Of a DNA stretch of 43,582 nt, positions 10,074 to 43,582 are shown one piece after another. A program made the position numbers and the translations under genes. Every line of letters starts with the position of its first letter. The stretch's first letter is position 1. The stretch lies in NCBI GenBank assembly GCA_040143965.1, contig JASJQH010006907.1:1-43582 (forward strand), read 5' to 3'. The notes beneath the pieces were generated by a model. That model made no database searches. It was given only the letters and a program-made list of their open reading frames with translations, and was not told the DNA's origin. The DNA comes from Basidiobolus ranarum. Its lineage: Eukaryota.

Positions 10074-10988
10074 CTCCCATAAGACATTTTCTGATCCATC
10101 CACTACGTGAATTTTATATTTTTAGCTATTCAAAAGATTCATCCATTTATATCCCAGGTTTATTAATTTATGTATGTCTTTTATCATTTTCCTCTGCGTT
10201 CGCTCTCCCTTCTCTCGTCATTAATATTAGAAGTGATGTCCCCACAGGTATATATATAACCTGATATTCAATTTATTTTCCAAGGAGTATGAATCCACGG
10301 TCACTTATTTTTATCCAATCAATTTCGTTTCGTTTCATTTCATTTCATTTGGTTATCCTTTGTATCCTTCATTGATTATGGTTCGAGTCCTACTTTTAGT
10401 TCTTGACAGTGTCACCATTCTATTTTAGACCCTACATATCACCTCACCCCCTCCCACTAGCTCACATCCACTCTCACCCTCTTTTCCCTTATCCACTGAA
10501 TAGGGGGGGGGCACTTCATTAAAACTTCACTCTACAAACACTCGTACGAAAAAGAAAACGGGGATAGATGATATCGTCCAATAAGTGCTAAAAAGCCGAA
10601 AGAGAGACGAGTGGTAGAGTAGAGTAGGGTATGGTAAGGAACAAAGAAGGGCCAAGGAAAAGAGTCTTACTGCTTAATCAAGAAATTCAATCCACCTTCG
10701 ACTTGATATAAAATCACTTTCAGTGGGAAAATGGGTGGTGATCGTCAATTTAAACCTATTTATTAGGTCAAGAAGGAAGAGTTTACAAAGGGGAATCAAA
10801 ATAGATATCAATGTGTATAAAAAGGTACGGGAATAGTTCAACAGAAATGCTTCATATTAATCTATATGCAAGATGCGTTTAGAAAAAAGGACCCAAATAA
10901 ATCAGATAAAGCTACTCTTTCAAAAGACATATCCATCACCCATTACCTAGCATTCAAGGAGGCTCGATACATGACGCTAGAGGTGATT

Positions 10989-30632: not shown

Positions 30633-33169
30633 ATGAGTAGCAAACACGCGCCAGGCACAATTGTTTGGGCAAAGATCAAAGGGTATCCTTGGTGGCCTGC
30701 TAAAGTACGTGTTTATAACATTAATATATCAATCTCCAACTTCTTGTTGAGAATACCTCCTAGTAACAAGAGTTGTTCAATAAACGCGATACTCGAGTTG
30801 GGATTTTATATATTTATATCATTACTACTATCTAGATCAAGAAGGAGGAGGAAGTCCCCGCCGCTGTCCTCAAACAAAAGCCTAGTAGACCTGTCCCTAT
30901 TATATCAGTAAAATTTTTCGGTACCAAAGATTAGTAAGTACTTTTCCTGCTTTCATAACTAATAGTTTTATATCTTGTTGACGCGTTTCTATTAATTTTG
31001 AAATAGTGGTTGGATTAGTTCAGATAACCTCAAGCCTTTTGAAGAACATCTCCAAGAATTCAATAAAGGTAGACGAGGTGTTCAATTTGATAGAGCGGTC
31101 AAAGAGGCCTCTGATCCTGATGCTCAGGCCTCCGCTTCGGAGGAGGAAATGAACGAAGTAGAAGAGGATGAGTTGGTTAGCGAGGAAGAGGAGCCTCCAA
31201 AAAAGACACCAAAGCGAGGTGGACGTAAGAAAGCTGAGCCTCGTAGAAAGAGTCGGAGTAAAGCTGACTCGGACGATGCTTCAGAAAGTGAGCCAGAGAA
31301 AGAAAAGAAAGTCAAAAAAACACCCAGTAGAAGAGCTTCTTCAGGAAGACGCTCATCAAGAATTAAGCAAGTGGAGGAGGATGAAGAAGAAGAGGAAGAG
31401 CCTGAACAGCGTCCTAATACTCGCAAGAGAAAATCTCCTCCCGTTGAAGAGTCTACGCCAAAAAGAAGAAGAACCTCACGTAAGGACAAGACAGCTGAAG
31501 AGCCAGTTGAGGCCAAGGAAGAGGAGCAGGAGCCTTCTACCCCACAACGTGCTAAACAAAAGTCCAAGCCTCGTTAGTTGAATTTTTATCTCACTTTGGT
31601 TGTGCTATGTTTTAATTCTGAGAGATATTTAGGGTCTCCTAGTGAAAAGCTCATGTATCTTCGTCATAAGTTGCAGAAATTGACCATGAAGGACGTCGTC
31701 GGGGTTGGTTTTCTGACTGTTAATAATTGTGGTATTATATGATTATTTATCTCTCAAACTGCATTTAGGATATGAACACAATAGATTCCCTTATGAAGGA
31801 GGTGGAGACTTTCGATATGAACCTTTCCCTCTTGAGAGTAAGTGCTAGAGATATGTTTGGTATTCAAGAGATGATCTAACTTGGATTTATATATATTTCT
31901 CAGGAAACAAAGATTGGCAAATTAATGAAGCGAGTCTCTCAGCTTGATTTAGACGATGACCCCTTTGATATTAGAGATAGAGCCTACACACTTACAAAGA
32001 AATGGAGATCACTACTCATTGAGGATGTTCTTTCAGACAAACAGCAAGCTAACGAAGATGAAAGTGAAAAGCCTGATGATGACGCTGATGCTGACACCAT
32101 TCCTATGGATGTTGATGTAGAAGAGTCTAAAATAGAAAATGACCAAGCGAAAGAAAATGACGATAGTGGCTCTGAAGCAGAGACAGAAATCGAACAGCAA
32201 CTCAGCTCTGGTAGTCCGGATGAAGACGAAGATAAAGAGCAAGCATCTGATATTGAAGGGGAAGTCATCCAAGATGTGCCTAAAAACACCGACACTGAGC
32301 ACGGAGTCGAAGTAGGCGAGAAGGAGGCTACTGCTGAAAAGATGGAATCTGTTGCTAAGCCTGAAGCCACTACTCAGTCTGCTGTCTCAGAGACCGATGA
32401 ATCTGTATCTAAATCAGATGTAATTAAGGATATTATACCTGAATCTGAGAGTAAGGAAGAATCCCAAGTTGCCGATGACAATACTGAATTACCCTCCAAT
32501 GGTAAAAGTGAAGAGCAAAGTAATGTTGACGTAGCTCAACCCGAACAAAACAACAATGACGAAGTAGTCACTCAAATGGAAGTAGAACCAAGTCTTGTAC
32601 AAGCCGATGTTAAGGATGAACCAAAGCAGTTAGAGAAAGCTGATTCTTCTGAGACAAAGAATCAAATGAAAGTAGAACCAAGTCCCGTACAAGCCGATGT
32701 TAAGGATGAACCAAAGCAGCTAGAGGAAGCTGATTCTTCGGAGGCAAAGACCCAAACTTCAGAGAATCAAGTGGAGTCCAACGAAGACTCTAAGCATCAT
32801 GTTGCAAATGGTGAGCTTGAGGATACTAAAGAACTTAATGAAACAGTATCTCTACAAGATCCTATATCCGAAAAAGACACAACCAAGGATCCAATCGAGG
32901 GTGAGCCAGAGAAACCAGAAAGTATTTCACATTCGGAACAGAAAGAGGCCTCTGAATCAAAATCTGAGGAAAATATACCAAAATTGGAAGATAGCACCCA
33001 AGTAGTGGAGGAAACAAAACTTGAGTCTTCAGAGGGTCAGGAGGCAACGGAAACCCAGGTTGAGCCTTCTGTGACTCATATTGTAGAAGAAACCCCCAAG
33101 TCTTCGGACGTCCATAATGAAGAACTCAAGGAGCTAGAGCCTAAAGAAAATGGACAAAAGACTGATTAA
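30633..33169 (+). CDS. PWWP-domain chromatin protein with TFIIS-N/IBD-like helical domain and long acidic tail (Pdp3/LEDGF-like), about 6 exons
   Basis: VWAKIKGYPWWPAK...VKFFGTKDYGW, then a basic/acidic linker, LMYLRHKLQK...LRETKIGKLMKRV...IRDRAYTLTKKWRSLL, and a long Glu/Asp-rich tail. Confidence 0.88.
32573..32752 (+). repeat. In-frame 90-bp (30-aa) tandem duplication in the PWWP acidic tail
   Basis: QMEVEPSLVQADVKDEPKQLEKADSSETKN / QMKVEPSPVQADVKDEPKQLEEADSSEAKT. The two DNA copies start at 32573 and 32663 and are nearly identical. Confidence 0.95.
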
Positions 33170-33948
33170 TCTAAGAGTTTGCTGACGATAATTTTATTTC
33201 TCGTGTCAATGTTAAATTTTGCTATTTCTATCACATCCTTCCTTTCCTTTTTCCCTAGTTAATTTGATGTATATGTGCTGAAAAGTAGATTTTCTACCCT
33301 TTACCATGTTGTTTTTAGTCTTTTCCTTGTTTACATTTTTTCTATGCTTAGCGAAGTATTGTAGCGTGAAGGTTGTGAGAAGATAGTCTCTGTTGACCTT
33401 TTCTGCTCACAGTTGCATCATATTCATGCTACCACTACTTTGTCTTTTATTTTCCGCTTTAGAAAACAAAACCAACGCATGGTGTTAAGCAAAATCTGAT
33501 TTCTCAAGCTTCTATTATTACTCTTTTTTAAAAAACGAACACATCGAAAAGTCAACCATGTGTACGATAATAATTAAATAAATTAACAAAAAAATAATTG
33601 GTCGATTTGGTAATACTGTTGAATCTGGTCAGATATTCGATGACATAGTATATTACACAACTTTAGCATATTTAAATTAGTAATTCCTATGCGTTATGTT
33701 TAGTGTCGATTTTTTTCATCTTAGTCACTATTGTTGGCAGAGACAGAGGCTGACTTTGCTCTTTGACGTGTTGGTGTCACGTTAATTATATTTTACACTT
33801 ACTGTCAAATCATACTTTTCAACATAAACGTACATTCCCTTCGAAGGCGTATTCATTCTGTAAAACTGTTTTAGATAATATAGCAAGAGAACAAGAGCCT
33901 TAACCCATTTAGCGAAGATTTGTGAACCGATTCACGGTATCTTTCAAA

Positions 33949-36900
33949 ATGCACAAGATAGATGCACCTAAACGCGCCTTTTACTTATAAGTATTTTAAA
34001 AGTATTTGTCAAGCGACAAATTTAGAGAAAAATTTACTTATTTCATCTTTCTTATTTTGTTCGGATTTATACAAATCATCAAAAATTCGTACTTGACATC
34101 GACATCAAGGGAAGAACTTTAAGGGTAGATATATTTCCGCTACATTATATGACCTTGAAGCATTTAGTAGAACCCACCACTATATTTCTCTATGATTATT
34201 TATCATTCTATTCTATTTTCCATTATTTGTAGGGCTTTACTGAGCTTCATATAATCCCAACTACAAATTCCTTGTCACACGTGCGCATCAATGCACGGCA
34301 TTGTGGTATCCTTTTGATTTCTTTTAGCATTTCACAACCTTTCCTTTTACAACGCGTAATATTTAAACTCCTTAACGCGTATCTCTGAGATATACATAAT
34401 GTCACGGTCAATGGAATTGCAACTTCTCACGAATACATCGATATTATCAAAAATTCACTGCTGCCTGAGGTCACAAAGGATAAAAACATATTCCAATATC
34501 ACGAATTGAAGCGAAGCTATCACACAGCATTATACGAGGCTGAGGAAGGGGAGCTGTTAATACATATTCCCGAAGTGATAGATATCGTACAGGTAAAGTT
34601 TACACATTATTTCTTTTACCTAAATTCAACCTTCTTTTGTCCTATATTTTCATTGTTTATTAAATCTACTAAATTGTAGTTCCAAGAAAATGAAGCACCA
34701 TTACTTGATGATTCTAACGAAGGTAAAGTTTCATTATTGCATGAAGTATCCAAAGTTGTGGATATATATACAGTGATCGCTAACGACTCCAAACCTTATG
34801 GTTTTGCTACAGCATACAACGCAATGTTCGAGGGACGAGTCATGTTCACCCCGCTGGTCATCCGTATAGACTTCGCAGTGGTAAACCCCAAGGCTGGCGT
34901 CAACTTCATACTACCTGATCCTCAAGTAAACCCTTATGTAAGTAAAAGCAATTCACTCCGTTAGTGCTTTAGAGGTTATAGCGTCTTAACAAAACTTTAA
35001 TATAGCGATTTCCGCACGTTTATACGTGTAATGAAACGTTTCCTGGCCAAGTGCGTCTTTGGTTGCCTTGTATCGACCGAATGCACGAACGCTGCACTTG
35101 GGAGATGGAGTATATTGTGGATCAAACGCTACAGGATTCCAGCGGTGATAACGTAACGGAAGAAGAAGAGGCTCTGGAGATGGTGGTAGTCAGTAGCGGT
35201 GAATTGATCGAACAGGTATTTTTTTCTGAATCTATCTAAAAAATATTGACTCCCAATGACACTTGTATCGTAATTAGACTTCTCATCCGATTGAGCCCAC
35301 TAAGAAAATATTCCATTACATCCTTGCAATACCATCACCAGCATTTTCTATATCTTTTGCTGCTGGTCCGTTTGAAGTTGTCAAGTTGAGCTCTTCTGAT
35401 GGTCAGGTAGAAAAGAGTTCAGAGGATGCTGGTGGTAAAAGTACTAGTGAGATCTTTATGAATACTGATGACAGTGAAGGAACCAGTGGAATGTTTGCAT
35501 TCTGCCTTCCAGGTTGGATCGATGAGACTGCGAACTCTTGTGAGTTTTTAAACAAGGTAACATAGCCTAGTCTTATGAAAAATATCAAAACCTTTTCTCA
35601 TTTGGATTTGTTTAGGCTTTGGAATTCTATGCTCAAGAACTCGGATCATATCCATATTCATCATTCAAGCTAGTGTTTGTCGAAGATGCGCCAGATATAA
35701 TGATGTACAGTGCTACTATGACTATAGCCAGGTATTTTATCACAATTGTGCGCCTAACTTCAAATAACCGTAGTATACTGATTCGAATGCTTATAATTTT
35801 AGTACGCACCTCTTGCACGGAGACGATATTATCGACCAAACGTACGAGACCCGAAGACACCTAAGCTTAGCACTAGCAAAGCAATGGTTCGGTATTCACG
35901 TGGTTCCAAAATATGGGTAAGTTAAATCCACTCATGGTTGATCCTTTGCGAAAACTAACATGCTTCCTTTTTGCATAACATTAGTGCTGATTTATGGTTG
36001 ACCGTTGGATTAGCTAATTATGCTACAAGCTTGCTCATTAAGCATTTGCACGGTAATAACGAATACAGGTTTCGAATGAAAAAGGTAACTACAGTTTCAA
36101 CTCTATATTTGCGATGTGGTGCTAACTTTTGATATTTTATGACAGGATATTGATAAAGTTTGCGAGCTGGATGTTGATCGCCCTCCTCTTTACAATGTCA
36201 ACCTTGCCTATCCCGTCGATCCAGATGACTATAACTTTATGCAGTTGAAAGCTCCCCTTGTGCTGTTTGTACTAGGGAAGAGAATGATGAAGGGTGGTCC
36301 CTCTCTTGGAATACACCGGGCTATTCCCAAGGTCCTTGTAGCTGCGATGAGTGGCGAGCTAGGAAGTGGCAATGCACTTAGTACAAATTGGTTTCTAAAA
36401 GTGTGCCGAAAAGTCAGTGGAGTGGATAATAAACCGTTTGCAGAGCAATGGATATATCCTTTTTGTGTATTTTAATTTTGGTTTTGAGATACGATCTGAA
36501 TTCTGCTTTACATTGCCATCTAATTTCTAAATATTTCCTTAACATATTAATACCTTTGGCAGCGGATGTCCGATATTTCATTTTACATATTCGTTTAATC
36601 GAAAGAAGATGGTAGTAGAGATCAACATGGAGCAAAGGTCTACTAACTCAAACGGATTAGCACACAAACATAGCGAACGTGCAATGTATCCAAGTACGAA
36701 TATGTTCACGGTAAGTTTATGCATGCTATTTGTATGCCCACGACGTATGTCGGTTGTTAAATTACAAATACACAGGGACACATGACTGCTCTCATTCGAG
36801 AAGCTGACGGAACTCCTTACGAACATGTGTTGGATATACAAGACTTGAACAAAAAGTATGAGGTGCAATTCAACACTAAGTATAAGCGTATCAGAAGGTT

Positions 36901-39900
36901 AACAAAGCGCTTCCAGCAGCGTCAGGCAGCAGCGGCCGCGGCCGAGGCTAGTGTTGGTGCTGAGGAGATGCCAGAGGCAGTTATGGATGACCTGGAAGAT
37001 GTTTTTGGGTATGGTATGGATGAGAAAGAAAAGGAAGAGTGGAGAGTTGTAGAATGGGGAGAAGTTGATGAAGAGAGTACCGCAAGGTAGAGTTGTTATA
37101 TTTTAAATAACCATTTGAAAGCAAACATTAATAATGGTAACTGATATAGTGGTACGTTTGAATGGATTCGACTTGATTCTGATCTTGAGTGGATTTGCGT
37201 TATGCAATTTGAACAACCTGATTACATGTGGGCTTGTCAACTGTTAAATGATCGTGATGTTGTGGCTCAGATCGAGGCAATTGAAGCTCTCTCGAATTGT
37301 CCATCACCTGCCACTTCTACGTCATTAATGAGAACTATGATGGACCCCAAGTGTTTCTACCGAATTCGTATGGAAGGCGCATTTGCACTCGCAAAATGTG
37401 CTATTCCACAGCTAGACTGGATTGGTTTACATCACCTTTTCAAAATATTTCAAAAAAGATACTGTTATGCTTCCACCACTTCCGATGGTGACGGCGAGAT
37501 TGCTATAGTTCCAAAGCCAAACAATTTTTCAGTGTTTACTGAGTACTTTGTTCAAAAGGCTATCGTTGCCGCTTTTTCGACTGTGAAAAATTCTAAAGGC
37601 CATACTCCGATCAAAATCAAACAGTTTCTTCTAGAGCTTCTTCGGTACAACGACAACACTGGGAACCACTTTTCTGACAACTATTATATTAGTGCGTTAA
37701 TCAACGCTCTAGGAAATGCGCTTATTCCTAACGAGAGGTCCAACCAAAGCGAACAAGAGGGTGAGAAAGAACTGTTTGCTGACGCCGTCCAGGAGATAGA
37801 ACGCTATCGAACACTGGATTATTTGGTTCCATCTTATCACAATACTGTGACTATAAGCGTACTGCAAGTAATGATGAAGCTTATGATGGCTAATCTTCTT
37901 GCCCCGAATTTGAAGCTGTTCTTAGGATATACCAGATATGGTAACTTTATGCGGGTACGACTAGTTGCGTTCGAAGCACTATTGCTTTTAGATGGTCTTC
38001 GTAATGGCTCGATTGGGCAGTATATTTTTCAAGTTATTGCTCTCGATCCTTGCCACTATGTCCGCTATTATTTAGCCAAGTGCTTATCTGAAATGTTAGG
38101 TGTTCATATTGCTCGTGCCAGCTCCACCGAACATGATACTACGGAAGAGATGGTTTTCGAGGAGGTAGGTCAGCCAAAAGTCATTCCAGAGAAGACCTCT
38201 GAAGAGGAATTTATTCATACTCCCGGCTTAGAAGCAATTCATAAAGAATTTTCGGGTAGAGAGGATCTTCAAGCACAAGTCTGGGAGATCTTGACATCTA
38301 ACCCTGAGCAGGACTATCGCGTGTTTCGTTATATGTTTCTTTTTTGTGAGTTGCTCTACAAGCCTATCGATACAATACCTAAATTGAAGATAAAGATGCC
38401 TGTAGTGGCACCCTCGGAGTCTCGAATTGACACGCCTTTAAGGACGTCTAGTAAAACTGCGGAGGCTAACAAGCCAACTGAAAAAGCAGATCCAGTCACA
38501 TCTATTCGAAAAGAGAGTACAAAGGCCAGCCATGACATCCCTATGATAAGTGCTCAGGAAGACGAAGATATTGAAATTGAAGCAGGAACTGTACCTTCCT
38601 CGACAAAACCAACTTCTACAACCACTAGCAAGGAGGACAAAAAAACCAAAGTTGTCAGCACCCCCAAAAATCGTAAAGAATCTAAAACATCGGAATCTCG
38701 TAAAGAGTCGCGTGACAAAGATTCAGAGAGACCGTACAAGAGTGAGCCGGTTGTGCCGGACGTTTTAGTTAAGATAGAGCCTGATGAAGTAAGTACATCC
38801 ACTCCTGTTGCAGCCACGACGCCTACCCATAAGGCTAAACTGCCATCGAGACAAACACCACAGCCTAATCTGACCATACCGGTACAAGATCAGCTAAGGC
38901 CGGAAGAGATGAAGGTTTGCAAACGGATCCTCCGAAAGATGATGGCTCATAAGTCTGCTTTTTACTTCCTTCAGCCTGTGGATCCAATTAGAGATGGGTG
39001 CCCTACATATTTTGATTTAATCAAGCATCCCATGGATCTGGGCACTGTTAAACTGAAGCTTGACGAGGGCAATTATCACAACCTGAAAGAGTTTGAGGAT
39101 GATGTGAGATTGATGCTGAATAACTGTTTTGTCTTTAACCCGGTCGGATCTTATGTTTACAATGAGGGCCAAGAGCTGGAAAGTGTTTTCGAGAAGGAAT
39201 GGAGTGAACAGAATGCGCAGAAACTCGTTGGTCGAGAGCCAGAGTTTAATATGACTATTGTGGAGTCTCCCGTCACCAAATCTAAACCTTTGCCATCGGA
39301 AAAATCAGATGTCGAGTCAGAGCCACCAAAGAATGAGGTCGAGAAATCCTCCAAGAATCTCACGCCTGAGCTTCACAAATGTAGAAGCATCTTGAAGAGG
39401 ATTGCACAACATGAATCTGCATTTGAGTTTTTAAGGCCTGTGGATCCTATCAAGCAAGGGATTCCTACGTATTTTGAAATGATCAAGAGTCCCATGGACC
39501 TTGGCACTGTCAATAAGAAATTGAAATCTGGCCAGTACCAAACAAAGGATGATTTCCGTGAAGATGTTGAGCTTATGCTTAACAACTGCTTTACCTTCAA
39601 CACTCCTGGTACTTTTGTGTACGACCAAGCAAAAAGTCTCAGTGAAGTATTTCAGCGAGAATGGGAGAATCAATTCGGAACCCGGACGGTATCTGACTCG
39701 GTGGAGCCTACTCATGCCCCAGTTAAAGTCGAGCCTATATCAGAGCCGAGTGTTCCTATCATACCTGACTCGTCTAGAAAACCAAAAATGGACATACCAG
39801 AGCCTGCTACTGTTGTGAAAATCGCAAAACCCTCTGTCGAGAAGGACCCGAAGGAAGTGACATCTATCGGATTCACCAAGCCGGCTCCAGCGATTGCAAC

Positions 39901-42024
39901 CCCGAGACCACCGTCACCGATGGTTCGAGCCCAGCCTCCTAACTCAAGCAGAGAAAGCAGTGGTATACCAACACCCAAGGCTGCTACTTCAGTAAAAAAC
40001 TCTCGAAAATCTTTGACACCCAAGCCATCTCAGAGTCCTGTACGCAGCAATGCTTCTCCAGTCACCAAAATTACTGGGAAAGCAACAAATGCCATGGATG
40101 ATGTTACCTATAAACGTTGCCAAAGAATACTCAAGAAGTTATGGTCGAACCCCTCCTCCGAACCGTTCCAATTGCCAGTTGACCCTATTGCTTTGAAGAT
40201 CCCAACCTATACGGATATCGTTAAAGAGCCTATGGATCTGAAGACAGTCAAAGAAAAATTAGACCGAGATGATTACATTTCTATCCGAGATTTTGAAAAA
40301 GATATTCGCCAGGTATTCTTCAATTGTTTCTTATTCAATCAGCCTGGTACTTGGGTATTTGAAGAAGGGAAGAAGATGGAGGCCTACTTCTACGAGCTTT
40401 TGGATCGCGATAAGCCTAGACGTCCCATATTATCTGAAGACAAGCAAAACTTATTAAAACTGATTCAGAAAATGACCAAAAGTAAGCATTCGTCGTTATT
40501 CCGAGAACCGGTTGATTGGGTGACATTACAGATTCCAGATTATCCGCGAATTATTCGACAGCCTATGGACCTACGAACCATAAAGGACAAGCTAGAGAAC
40601 GATCAATACCGAACCTGGGTAGATTTCGAAAGAGATATTCGTTTGATATTCAACAACTGCTTTACTTTCAATCCTTCTGGGACGTATGCTCATGAAGAAT
40701 GCCAGCACTTGGAGAACTATTTCTTTGAACGTTATCAGGAAATCAAGAGCACTTTGAAAGTCATTCCTGACGTTTCAAGGACTCCGTCTAGAGAACCTAG
40801 CATCAAGAGAGAGCCCGAGCCGGTGAGCATGACTCCCGAGCAATTGAAATTATGTGAGAAAATATACAAAAAAGTAAGCGGTAACAAAAATGCCGCTGCT
40901 TTCCTGGAACCGGTAAGTTATTCAATTCCTTTTTTTATATATCAGATTTATTAACAGACAACTTATCTCCAATGAAGGTTGATCCAGTTGCAATGGGCAT
41001 TCCGCACTACTTTGATGTAGTCCGTAATCCAATGGATTTCAGTACAGTTCATAAAAAGCTCAAGGCTGGAGAATATTCTATTCCAGGTGAGTTTGAGGCT
41101 GATGTGCGTCAGATATTCAAAAACTGTGCTACATTCAATGGCCCAGAACACTATTATACACAACAGGCGATGTTGCTCGATAAGATTTTGGACAAGGAAA
41201 TGCTCGCTTTCCAAAATCCGAAGTATTTAGGTAAACAAAATGGAGGCAGCGGTAGTAGAAAATCCAGCAAGCAGCCAAAAAAAGAAACTGTAGTACCCAT
41301 GGCTGCCCCGATTGCTTCTCCTATTCAAAGCTCAAGAGTGTCGGTTCCGTCTAGTCCTAAGACTCTGGATAGATCGGCACTTAAAGCATGTGAAAGTGTA
41401 CTGGCGCGAATCAAGTCACATCCCGCCTTCGAACCTTTCCGGGCTCCTGTGGATATTAAAGCCTTGGGTATTCCACATTACTACAAGGTTGTGAAACATC
41501 CCATGGATTTTGGCACGATCGAAAACAAACTTCGAAGTGGAAAATACCAGAGCATCGAACAATTCGTAGCCGACTCTCAATTAGTATTTGAGAATTGCTA
41601 CGCTTTTAACATTCCAGGTGATTCCGTCTATGTAATGGGACAGGAATTACAAAGATCATTTGAGAAAGCTTGTAAAAAGTACGGCTTACTAGACACTATT
41701 GAGAAGGCAACTCCTGAGCGGAGTGCAGTAAAGCGTGTACATCCTGAAGATTCTGAGCAATCCGAGGTACATATCTTACTAACCCATATTAATAATTATA
41801 TCGCATAAATATTGACAATATTTACCTAGCGCCATGGCACTCACGAGCGAAAGCGTAAGAAGGATAGAAAGGAGAAAAGAAAGCACAAGCACAGTAGTCA
41901 TCGGGAGGATGATGACAGGCCAGGCACTGAAGAGCACTTCTCCGATTCAGAGAATAGTCGTGCATCAGCATCACGAACCTCACCTCAGCCCCAAGTCCGT
42001 CTAAAGATCAAGTTAAAGCACTGA
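33949..42024 (+). CDS. TAF2: TFIID subunit 2 fused to six C-terminal bromodomains, about 17 exons, about 2,290 aa
   Basis: Aminopeptidase-like TAF2 core (HQKFVLDID, GFTEL, WLPCID, QWFG, LKAPLVL, QWIFGSGCP, IREADGTPYEH, EWIRLD, DRDVVAQIEAI, RYNDNTGNHFSDNYY). It continues in the same exon into bromodomains with F.xPVD...Y...PMD...NCxxFN, six in total. A Lys/His-rich tail ends VRLKIKLKH*. Confidence 0.93.
33987..34072 (+). other. TAF2 intron 1: probable AT-AC intron with U2-like donor ATAAGT
   Basis: TTTTACTT|ataagtat...gatttatac|AAATCATCAAAAA gives MHKIDAPKRAFYL-NHQKF. There is no GT between ATG 33949 and the in-frame TAA. Confidence 0.65.
34306..34389 (+). other. U12-type (minor spliceosome) GT-AG intron in TAF2
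   Basis: Donor GTATCCTTT, branch TCCTTAAC at 34369-34376, 13 nt to the end of the acceptor. Splicing restores RINARHC-DIHNVTVNG. Confidence 0.93.
36454..36553 (+). other. U12-type (minor spliceosome) AT-AC intron in TAF2
   Basis: Donor ATATCCTTT, branch TTCCTTAAC at 36535-36543, acceptor TAC. Splicing restores the conserved EQWI-FGSGCP. Confidence 0.95.
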
Positions 42025-43582
42025 ATCTAAGGGATTCGCGCGCTTCTATACTCTATCCTCAGCCACACCTTTTGAGCTGTTGTGGTTTTGGTTTTTTTGG
42101 CATGCAATAGGAAGAAGTTATTTGTTATTGAATTAAGTGTTGAAAAAGAACTTGATTCGTTTTCTTTTCAGCGATATGTTTTTGTGTTTATCTTTGACAA
42201 CGCGCTCTTGTGCTGGGATATTTTAACATCAATCTTGTATTGCTCTCCCCCATTCCAAAAATGCTTACATAGCAACTACCTTCTGTAAATAGACAAAAAC
42301 TTGGTCAAATTGCAAATTAAAAGGCTAGACATTGATTTAGCACTAACAAGATTCAGCATATTATTCAATAACTAGACAAAGGGTTTATAATGTTGGATTC
42401 TATGGCTTGTATTGAGGATCTGGTTCATCCAGCTTTTAATTTGAATCCAGTGAACCTGAGAATGATCTATTGGCCAGGAAGAACCAAACATGTCATTTGG
42501 TTGTGGATGTGAATTAAAATTAAATATTAAAGCCTGCTCGAATGAATGTTACGAATACGGTGTTGGACTCAACCGTGTATCGATACAGGTCTATCTAGTA
42601 GAATTAATGCTCTGAGCGGAAATGTGCTAAGAAATCCATACTTGGAGGGATCAGTGAATGTTAGTATCTCCACCTGCGAGCAAACATCCAATACGGGTTT
42701 AGCCATCTCAACATTGGGTACCAGCAGCTGTTCAATCAATTTCGGAGTAATCATACTAATATTAAGTACTGCTGAAAATCAAGGTAGCCAGACCTTTGCG
42801 TTAGGTAGATTAGTTATACTGCAAGTAGGGCGAGGAAAGGAGCAGTACAAGGCCGTACGAGTGACTGGGTAATCAATAGAACAGAGGGGCTGAGAAGGAA
42901 TCTAGGATTTCCTCGAAGAACGGTGGTGGTTTTATAGGAGCAGATGTGCTAATACAATGCAGTTGAACGTGCTCTCTAAATACTAGAGTTTAGAGATGAT
43001 TGTCTAATGTACCCTCTTCGGGGATAACTCTGATGCTTGCATTCGACATAAATTTACATAAACAATGAGATTGTCCAACACGACTCCAGTACATTTATTA
43101 CTCCGCTCCATCAGTTGTTAATGTGTTGTTGCGCTAAACCCTAAGCCCTAAACTCAGATCACATTTCCTTGCCAAGATCCGATGACTTGAATCAATTAAC
43201 CCGATTGTTACATTGATGTTATTTTGGAAATTAAGGCGACTGTGGGAGACGTTTTCCGGATCTCCACTAGTTATTCATTTTCCAGTCATTTGAAATTAAG
43301 ATTGAACTCCAGCTGGAACGAGCTCTGTGAATAAATAATCAGATGGTGCTATCCTGAGGCGACTTGCCCATCTCCTGCGCGGAAAAGAGGCCAGCCAGTA
43401 ATTCTGAACAAACCCGCATGACCAGCCGCGTCCTCAACAATCCTAAAATTTGGATTCGCCCCACCCGTACCACCTTCCAGATTCCATTTCACCGTGGCAT
43501 GGTGATCCACGATTACTAGCAATTCCGACTTCAGGGAGCCGAGTTTCAGGCTTCCATACCGTACAAAGTTGAATTTGAGGAT

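Follow-up and report, generated by a model that had tools for sequence, protein, structure and literature searches.

The TAF2 locus

The stretch of DNA analysed here, referred to below as the window, comprises 43,582 nucleotides (nt) of contig JASJQH010006907.1 from Basidiobolus ranarum (assembly GCA_040143965.1). On its forward strand lies a gene for a TAF2-bromodomain protein, and the subject of this report is the putative first intron of that gene, at 33987..34072, which begins with AT and ends with AC. An earlier reading of the letters by themselves (the sequence-only reading) had picked out the same segment as a candidate AT-AC intron with a major-type donor. We consider it probable that this is a real spliceosomal intron, the first of B. 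ranarum TAF2, with AT-AC termini and removed by the major (U2-dependent) spliceosome; its human orthologue is most likely intron 1 of TAF2.

The coding region as modelled runs from 33949 to 42027, with 16 introns between its 17 exons, and its 8-kb reading frame stays open across all the exons. Thirteen of the introns are GT-AG introns of 59-108 nt, two are of U12 type and the remaining one is the putative U2-type AT-AC intron. Similarity to TAF2 extends over the full length of the protein, including the N-terminal aminopeptidase-M1-like domain, with E-values against fungal TAF2 proteins down to 1e-130, and 243 representative proteins are related to it at E <= 1e-30. Among solved structures, Komagataella Taf2 (6hqa) is matched at 3e-76 and human TAF2 at 8e-52. 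The product of the large exon at 37145-40954 matches K7432_001434, a deposited B. ranarum protein, at 100% identity and shares 45-49% identity with TAF2-bromodomain proteins of Mortierellaceae, Mucorales and others. The sequence encoded by exon 4 recurs unchanged in K7432_001433, and a protein search with this exon among longer proteins gave one match in 48 candidates, the deposited B. ranarum cluster itself.

Public annotation splits a single TAF2-bromodomain gene into K7432_001433 and K7432_001434. A second TAF2 copy, split alike (K7432_008111 and K7432_008112), is found on another contig of this assembly, of 14,235 bases, at 96-97% protein identity. The genome of Basidiobolus is large and redundant, and the second copy is consistent with this.

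Reading frames around the first intron

The start codon is the ATG at 33949 (context tcaaaATGc), the first past an in-frame stop at 33910-33912 in an open reading frame spanning 33913..33990. This frame closes at the TAA at 33988-33990. The coding part of exon 1 (33949..33986) runs from the ATG through 12 codons to the TT of a leucine codon and encodes MHKIDAPKRAFY(L), the same residues with which the deposited K7432_001433 begins. Exon 2 (34073..34124) consists of an A followed by the block NHQKFVLDIDIKGRTLR, which is in a different frame from the ATG at 33949, and leads into intron 2, an ordinary GT-AG intron of 108 nt (34125..34232). In the frame of ATG 33949 there is no GT ahead of the TAA at 33988, and there is no AG between 34028 and 34106, so that no GT-AG route exists from this start codon. 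The sequence-only reading had held that only an AT-AC intron could join this ATG, in its good context, to the HQK-LDID exon, and the frames agree.

Excision of 33987-34072 brings both frames together, giving MHKIDAPKRAFYLNHQKFVLDIDIKGRTLR. The joined N-terminus MHKIDAPKRAFYLNHQK has the R-x-F-x-[VLI]-x-HQ pattern that is conserved where TAF2 orthologues begin, and it matches human TAF2 in solved structures as well. The candidate intron, with coordinates and letters as previously described, is 86 nt long and of phase 2. It opens with ATAAGT (within ATAAGTAT) and closes with TTTATAC, the terminal AC lying at 34071..34072, and so has the AT start and AC end that characterise U2-type AT-AC (type II) introns. 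Its length falls within the range of the 13 GT-AG introns of the gene, and both this and its G+C content of 22% are ordinary.

Splice signals and spliceosome class

Apart from position +1, which is A instead of G, the 5' splice site ATAAGTAT (33987..33994) fits the U2-type consensus /ATAAGT. Positions +2 to +8 are complementary to the conserved 5' end of U1 small nuclear RNA. Towards the 3' end lies a pyrimidine-rich tract (34033..34061) in which 24 of 29 bases are T or C and which contains two candidate CTTAT branch sites, at 34037-34041 and 34051-34055. By the yUnAy rule, the putative branch A would be 32 or 18 nt from the 3' end, respectively. For U2-type AT-AC introns in general, a 'very strong /ATAAGT consensus' is described by Gould 2016, and the donor criterion for AT-AC II introns given in Sheth 2006 (PMC1557818) is the same.

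The signals of the minor spliceosome are missing from intron 1, as the sequence-only reading had noticed. No ATATCC occurs in 33987-34072, and comparison of the donor ATAAGTAT with the U12 AT-AC donor ATATCCTT shows agreement at four of eight positions and at none of three in the TCC core. The U12 branch box TCCTTAAC is not found at its usual distance of about 10-15 nt from the 3' end. Its best matches in the intron, TACTTATT and TTCTTATT, each differ from it at three of eight positions and are located 31 and 17 nt from the end, whereas both true U12 introns of the same gene contain the box with no mismatches.

These comparisons bear on the possibility that the minor (U12) spliceosome, acting through a degenerate donor, is responsible for all or some of the removal of an AT-AC intron 1, in a lineage rich in minor introns. 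The AT-AC termini would suit such a route, as would the weak TTCTTAT located 17 nt from the 3' end. Against it stand the poor fit of the donor, its complete lack of agreement in the TCC core, the three mismatches in the best branch box and, from a different direction, the human counterpart of the intron, which showed no response when a minor-spliceosome factor was depleted (de Wolf 2021, PMC8280824; see below). We regard minor-spliceosome removal as unlikely. Intron 1 is best read as an AT-AC intron with a major-type (U2) donor, and its signals point to removal by the major spliceosome.

Evidence for the join

For an assessment of the join itself, all single-intron models were enumerated that have GT-AG, GC-AG or AT-AC termini, start from an ATG in 33300-34070 and are stop-free to exon 2; there are 42 of these. 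They were scored against a profile of the eight residues preceding the conserved HQ, derived from 249 TAF2 relatives with the four B. ranarum proteins excluded. The HQ motif was present within the first 140 residues of 121 of the 249; the 128 in which the pattern did not find it, mostly truncated models, were dropped, and removal of a further 12 with fewer than eight residues upstream of HQ left 109 N-termini. In these, R is found at position -6 in 68 sequences, F at -4 in 87 and V, L or I at -2 in 104, a pattern with which the R-x-F-x-L of exon 1 agrees.

The junction octamer created by the AT-AC join, PKRAFYLN, scores +8.5 bits on the 109-sequence profile. This value was reached by 0.0565% of 200,000 random octamers, for which the mean was -12.8. 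The AT-AC join is the one model of the 42 to score above zero, the other 41 all falling below. It is thus the join, and not the ATAAGT hexamer, that exceeds chance. The resemblance of the product to the TAF2 N-terminus, previously proposed with reference to the human protein, is also borne out by individual comparisons. The near relatives Neoconidiobolus and Calcarisporiella begin ..KKAFYINHQK and ..RRGFSLNHQQ, respectively, and in the alignment with PDB chains of human TAF2, residues R24-P-Y-K-L-T-H-Q31 correspond to R9-A-F-Y-L-N-H-Q16 of B. ranarum, Komagataella Taf2 aligning likewise.

Two further sources are in line with the join. The deposited proteins K7432_001433 and K7432_008111, which are 96% identical, both carry it, with the sequence MHK[I/L]DAPKRAFYLNHQK. 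We treat these models as agreement rather than independent proof. In addition, two 'partial' TAF2 models from Linnemannia start exactly at SHQK, the first whole codon past the position of intron 1, which hints that an unmodelled intron may lie at the same site there.

The same scores weigh on two other ways of reaching exon 2. In the first, a GT-AG intron that uses the AG at 34025 or 34027 follows an unrecognised upstream exon, or some other start is used, and the TAF2 match of exon 1 is coincidental. Models of this kind can be built, since GT-AG and GC-AG introns from ATGs in 33306-33696 reach 34025 or 34027 without a stop. Every one of them, however, retains ..IYLFHLSYFVRIYTNHQK and has a negative score, as do 41 of the 42 models in total, while a coincidental match as good as that of exon 1 would have the low random frequency given above. 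There is also little room for such an exon, the stop codon of the upstream gene lying at about 33168-33170. We judge this explanation to be quite improbable.

The second is the competing model that the sequence-only reading had itself put forward, in which translation starts at the ATG at 33962, a 37-nt GT-AG intron (33991..34027) is removed and the T-rich segment 34028-34072 is coding (..KKIYLFHLSYFVRIYTNHQK). It does exist as described, in frame and with canonical termini, and its donor GTATTT is seen also at 35216 and 35732. Yet all 13 GT-AG introns of the gene are longer than this one, and the model's product, ..YFVRIYTNHQK, scores -13.2 bits, about the random mean, lacks the R, F and [VLI] residues found in most of the 109 orthologues and is at odds with both deposited B. 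ranarum proteins. The earlier preference for the AT-AC intron over this model was well placed, and we consider the 37-nt intron very improbable.

Least credible of all is an artefact: either assembly errors have put an A and a C at the ends of what is a GT-AG intron, or this copy is a duplicate in decay. The second TAF2 copy means that one of the two could be degenerating, but two independent errors at exactly both terminal bases are improbable, the 8-kb frame is unbroken over 17 exons and the same rare termini have been published for human TAF2 intron 1 (de Wolf 2021, PMC8280824).

The probable animal counterpart and the age of the intron

U2-type AT-AC introns are very rare, as the sequence-only reading had stated. 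The AT-AC II survey of Sheth 2006 (PMC1557818) lists 15 human examples, out of 185,966 introns, along with 6 from mouse and 3 from fly. It includes an AT-AC II intron conserved between human and Drosophila TAF2, and recalls that a G-to-A change at the first base of an intron can be rescued by G-to-C at the last. In de Wolf 2021 (PMC8280824), human TAF2 intron 1 is tabulated as AT_AC, U2, 750 nt, and 'major (U2-type) AT-AC introns in ... TAF2 (intron 1)' were followed by reverse-transcription PCR. When the minor-spliceosome factor CENATAC was depleted, none of 85 major AT-AC or related introns responded. The U2 dependence of the human intron rests, indirectly, on this lack of response.

The position of the human intron can be judged from the primers in the same paper. 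The exon-1 primer encodes GVEPARM, and the exon-2 primer encodes VVCINN, which in the PDB alignment is human residues 32-37, directly past H30-Q31. This placement puts human intron 1 in the short segment immediately preceding HQ, which is the location of the fungal intron as well. The two are therefore alike in gene family, in being the first intron, in their AT-AC termini and U2-type class and in lying just upstream of HQ; they differ in length, at 750 nt in human and 86 nt in B. ranarum. Since the class is so rare, two such introns are unlikely to have arisen separately at the start of one gene, and common descent is far more likely than coincidence. Intron 1 of B. ranarum and human TAF2 intron 1 are probably orthologous, with a putatively identical position and phase.

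Comparison with other introns places it more closely. AT-AC II introns in other animal genes resemble it in their AT-AC termini, in a U2-type donor with G at +5, in having host genes that also contain U12 introns and in the descent from U12 AT-AC introns, with subsequent trapping, proposed for them. They differ in residing in unrelated genes of animals only and in having a U2 dependence established experimentally, where that of the B. ranarum intron is predicted from its signals. U12 AT-AC introns, such as that at 36454-36553 in the same gene, share the AT-AC termini, the short length and phase 2, but have two elements that are missing from intron 1, a ATATCCTT donor and, 10-15 nt from the 3' end, a TCCTTAAC box; intron 1 has instead a U1-complementary donor and a long pyrimidine tract. 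The B. ranarum intron is thus a fungal instance of an already known kind of intron and not a new kind. A full-text literature search on TAF2 with AT-AC found no fungal counterpart, and within the literature searched the intron seems to be unreported.

The sequence-only reading had gone on to interpret the intron as a possible intermediate in conversion from U12 to U2 type. Its other elements, namely the AT-AC termini with a major-type donor, the two U12 introns in the gene and the weakness of the competing GT-AG model, all stand; the label of intermediate is not supported as put. As an AT-AC II intron is known in TAF2 of both human and Drosophila, an intron shared with animals most likely represents an old and stable state rather than a transitional one.

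Several points weigh against the interpretation preferred here. The exon side of the donor (CTT) is poor, and the CTTAT branch candidates are unlike those of several other TAF2 introns, which are CTAAC-like. The hexamer ATAAGT is not enriched in the window, with 27 copies compared with 35.9 expected from shuffles; as this is not above chance, the count was dropped as evidence. The boundary is ambiguous by one nucleotide because 33987 and 34073 are both A, so that an intron at 33988-34073 (TA..CA) would yield the identical mRNA; AT-AC is the boundary choice that matches a known intron class. Splicing at exactly 33987 and 34072 is a prediction. The deposited gene models are perhaps not independent, as they may rest on the same protein homology, and the same annotation failed at the U12 AT-AC intron at 36454. 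The comparison with the second B. ranarum copy is one of proteins. The fungal position corresponds to human L28, while the exact human junction is only bracketed, between the Met of GVEPARM and Q31.

Orthologous DNA was also not found in two scans of metagenome contigs. An alignment of nine TAF2 N-termini was too diverse to serve as a search query. A Mortierellaceae-only alignment gave 111 pattern matches, none of them confirmed, and the B. ranarum N-terminus gave 169 pattern matches with two 'confirmed' loci, both of which proved to be chance matches in G+C-rich bacterial DNA and were discarded. A search for animal models from the Creolimax TAF2 protein returned four proteins, none named as animal, and ten representative TAF2 relatives were, by name, from protists and chytrids only.

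The U12 introns of the gene

Two true U12 introns had been reported in this gene, and both are confirmed by exact TCCTTAAC boxes. The first, a GT-AG intron at 34306..34389 on the forward strand, has the donor GTATCCTT, with the branch A 14 nt from the 3' end. The second, at 36454..36553 on the same strand, has the donor ATATCCTT and the box at 11 nt from the 3' end, and ends in AC. It follows CAA TGG AT (Q W I), in phase 2 of the codon after Q-W. The U12 intron of human TAF2 is of the GT-AG subtype, in the context ..CAG TGG GT/GTATCCTT (Q W V523, phase 2) (de Wolf 2021, PMC8280824), and so shares both codon position and phase with 36454-36553. The U12 intron in the codon after Q-W has been kept in both genes, and looks to be orthologous, having apparently switched subtype between fungi (AT-AC, in Basidiobolus) and animals (GT-AG, in human).

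It is at this intron that the public gene model breaks. K7432_001433 ends ..AEQWIYPFCVF, a read-through into the U12 AT-AC intron, and K7432_001434 begins at an internal Met, leaving the exons between 36554 and about 37330 without annotation. With 36454-36553 excised, the protein reads ..AEQWIFGSGCPIFHF.., in line with the orthologues.

Among fungal genera, minor introns reach their highest reported density in Basidiobolus, the figure for B. meristosporus being 0.554% (n = 249) in Larue and Roy 2023, and a similar one appears in Olthof 2024. Elsewhere in the window, a U12-like donor at 10362 was not accepted as a clear intron: it has TTCTTGAC for a branch box and lacks an established coding context.

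Other features of the window

Within the TAF2 gene, an annotated 90-nt GT-AG intron at 34723-34812 is stop-free and a multiple of three in length, and the open reading frame 34680-34964 is continuous through it; some transcripts could keep it as coding sequence. The gene carries a run of bromodomains in its C-terminal half (38900-41800 of the window), and PF00439 appears in the precomputed domains of most fungal TAF2 matches. Fusion of bromodomains to TAF2 is common to many fungi and is not seen in the 1199-residue human chain.

At the far end of the contig, 117 bases on the reverse strand (43466-43582) match a bacterial small-subunit ribosomal RNA model (53.9 bits, model positions 1271-1387), the match being cut by the contig end. 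This could be an organelle-derived or ribosomal DNA-like fragment, or an assembly join. A transfer RNA-Pro (CGG) gene lies on the reverse strand at 31-104, at the opposite contig end.

A model for the TAF2 AT-AC intron and its significance

For removal of intron 1 by the major spliceosome we envisage the following. The U1 small nuclear ribonucleoprotein would bind the donor through seven contiguous pairs, from +2 to +8 (UAAGUAU), despite the A at +1, and U2 would pair with one of the two CUUAU branch sites in the long pyrimidine tract. At the second step, a non-Watson-Crick contact between the first A and the last C of the intron would replace the usual G-G contact. The origin of such introns from U12 AT-AC introns is an already published general hypothesis, put forward by Lin 2010 as a 'rare pathway from AT-AC U12 to AT-AC U2-type' that leaves the intron 'trapped'. 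Intron 1 is probably an ancient example caught in the U2-type AT-AC state, since exit would need two simultaneous terminal changes.

We lean towards a history in which TAF2 intron 1 was already a U2-type AT-AC intron before fungi and animals split and has stayed so, which would place it among the oldest traceable non-canonical introns of the major spliceosome, held in this state either by the two-mutation barrier or by slow splicing that sets TAF2 levels. In this history the same gene would also have kept an orthologous U12 intron after Q-W, with a switch of subtype between Basidiobolus and human.

Gene finders limited to GT-AG introns will truncate TAF2 at intron 1, just as the neighbouring U12 AT-AC intron has already split the public TAF2 gene model in two. 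A single gene with U2-type AT-AC, U12 AT-AC and U12 GT-AG introns also offers a natural test case for their direct comparison. The origin of the extremely rare U2-type AT-AC introns is debated and, if the B. ranarum intron is the true fungal counterpart of the animal one, such an intron would have persisted for roughly the whole of opisthokont history, which would support the 'trapped' model of Lin 2010.

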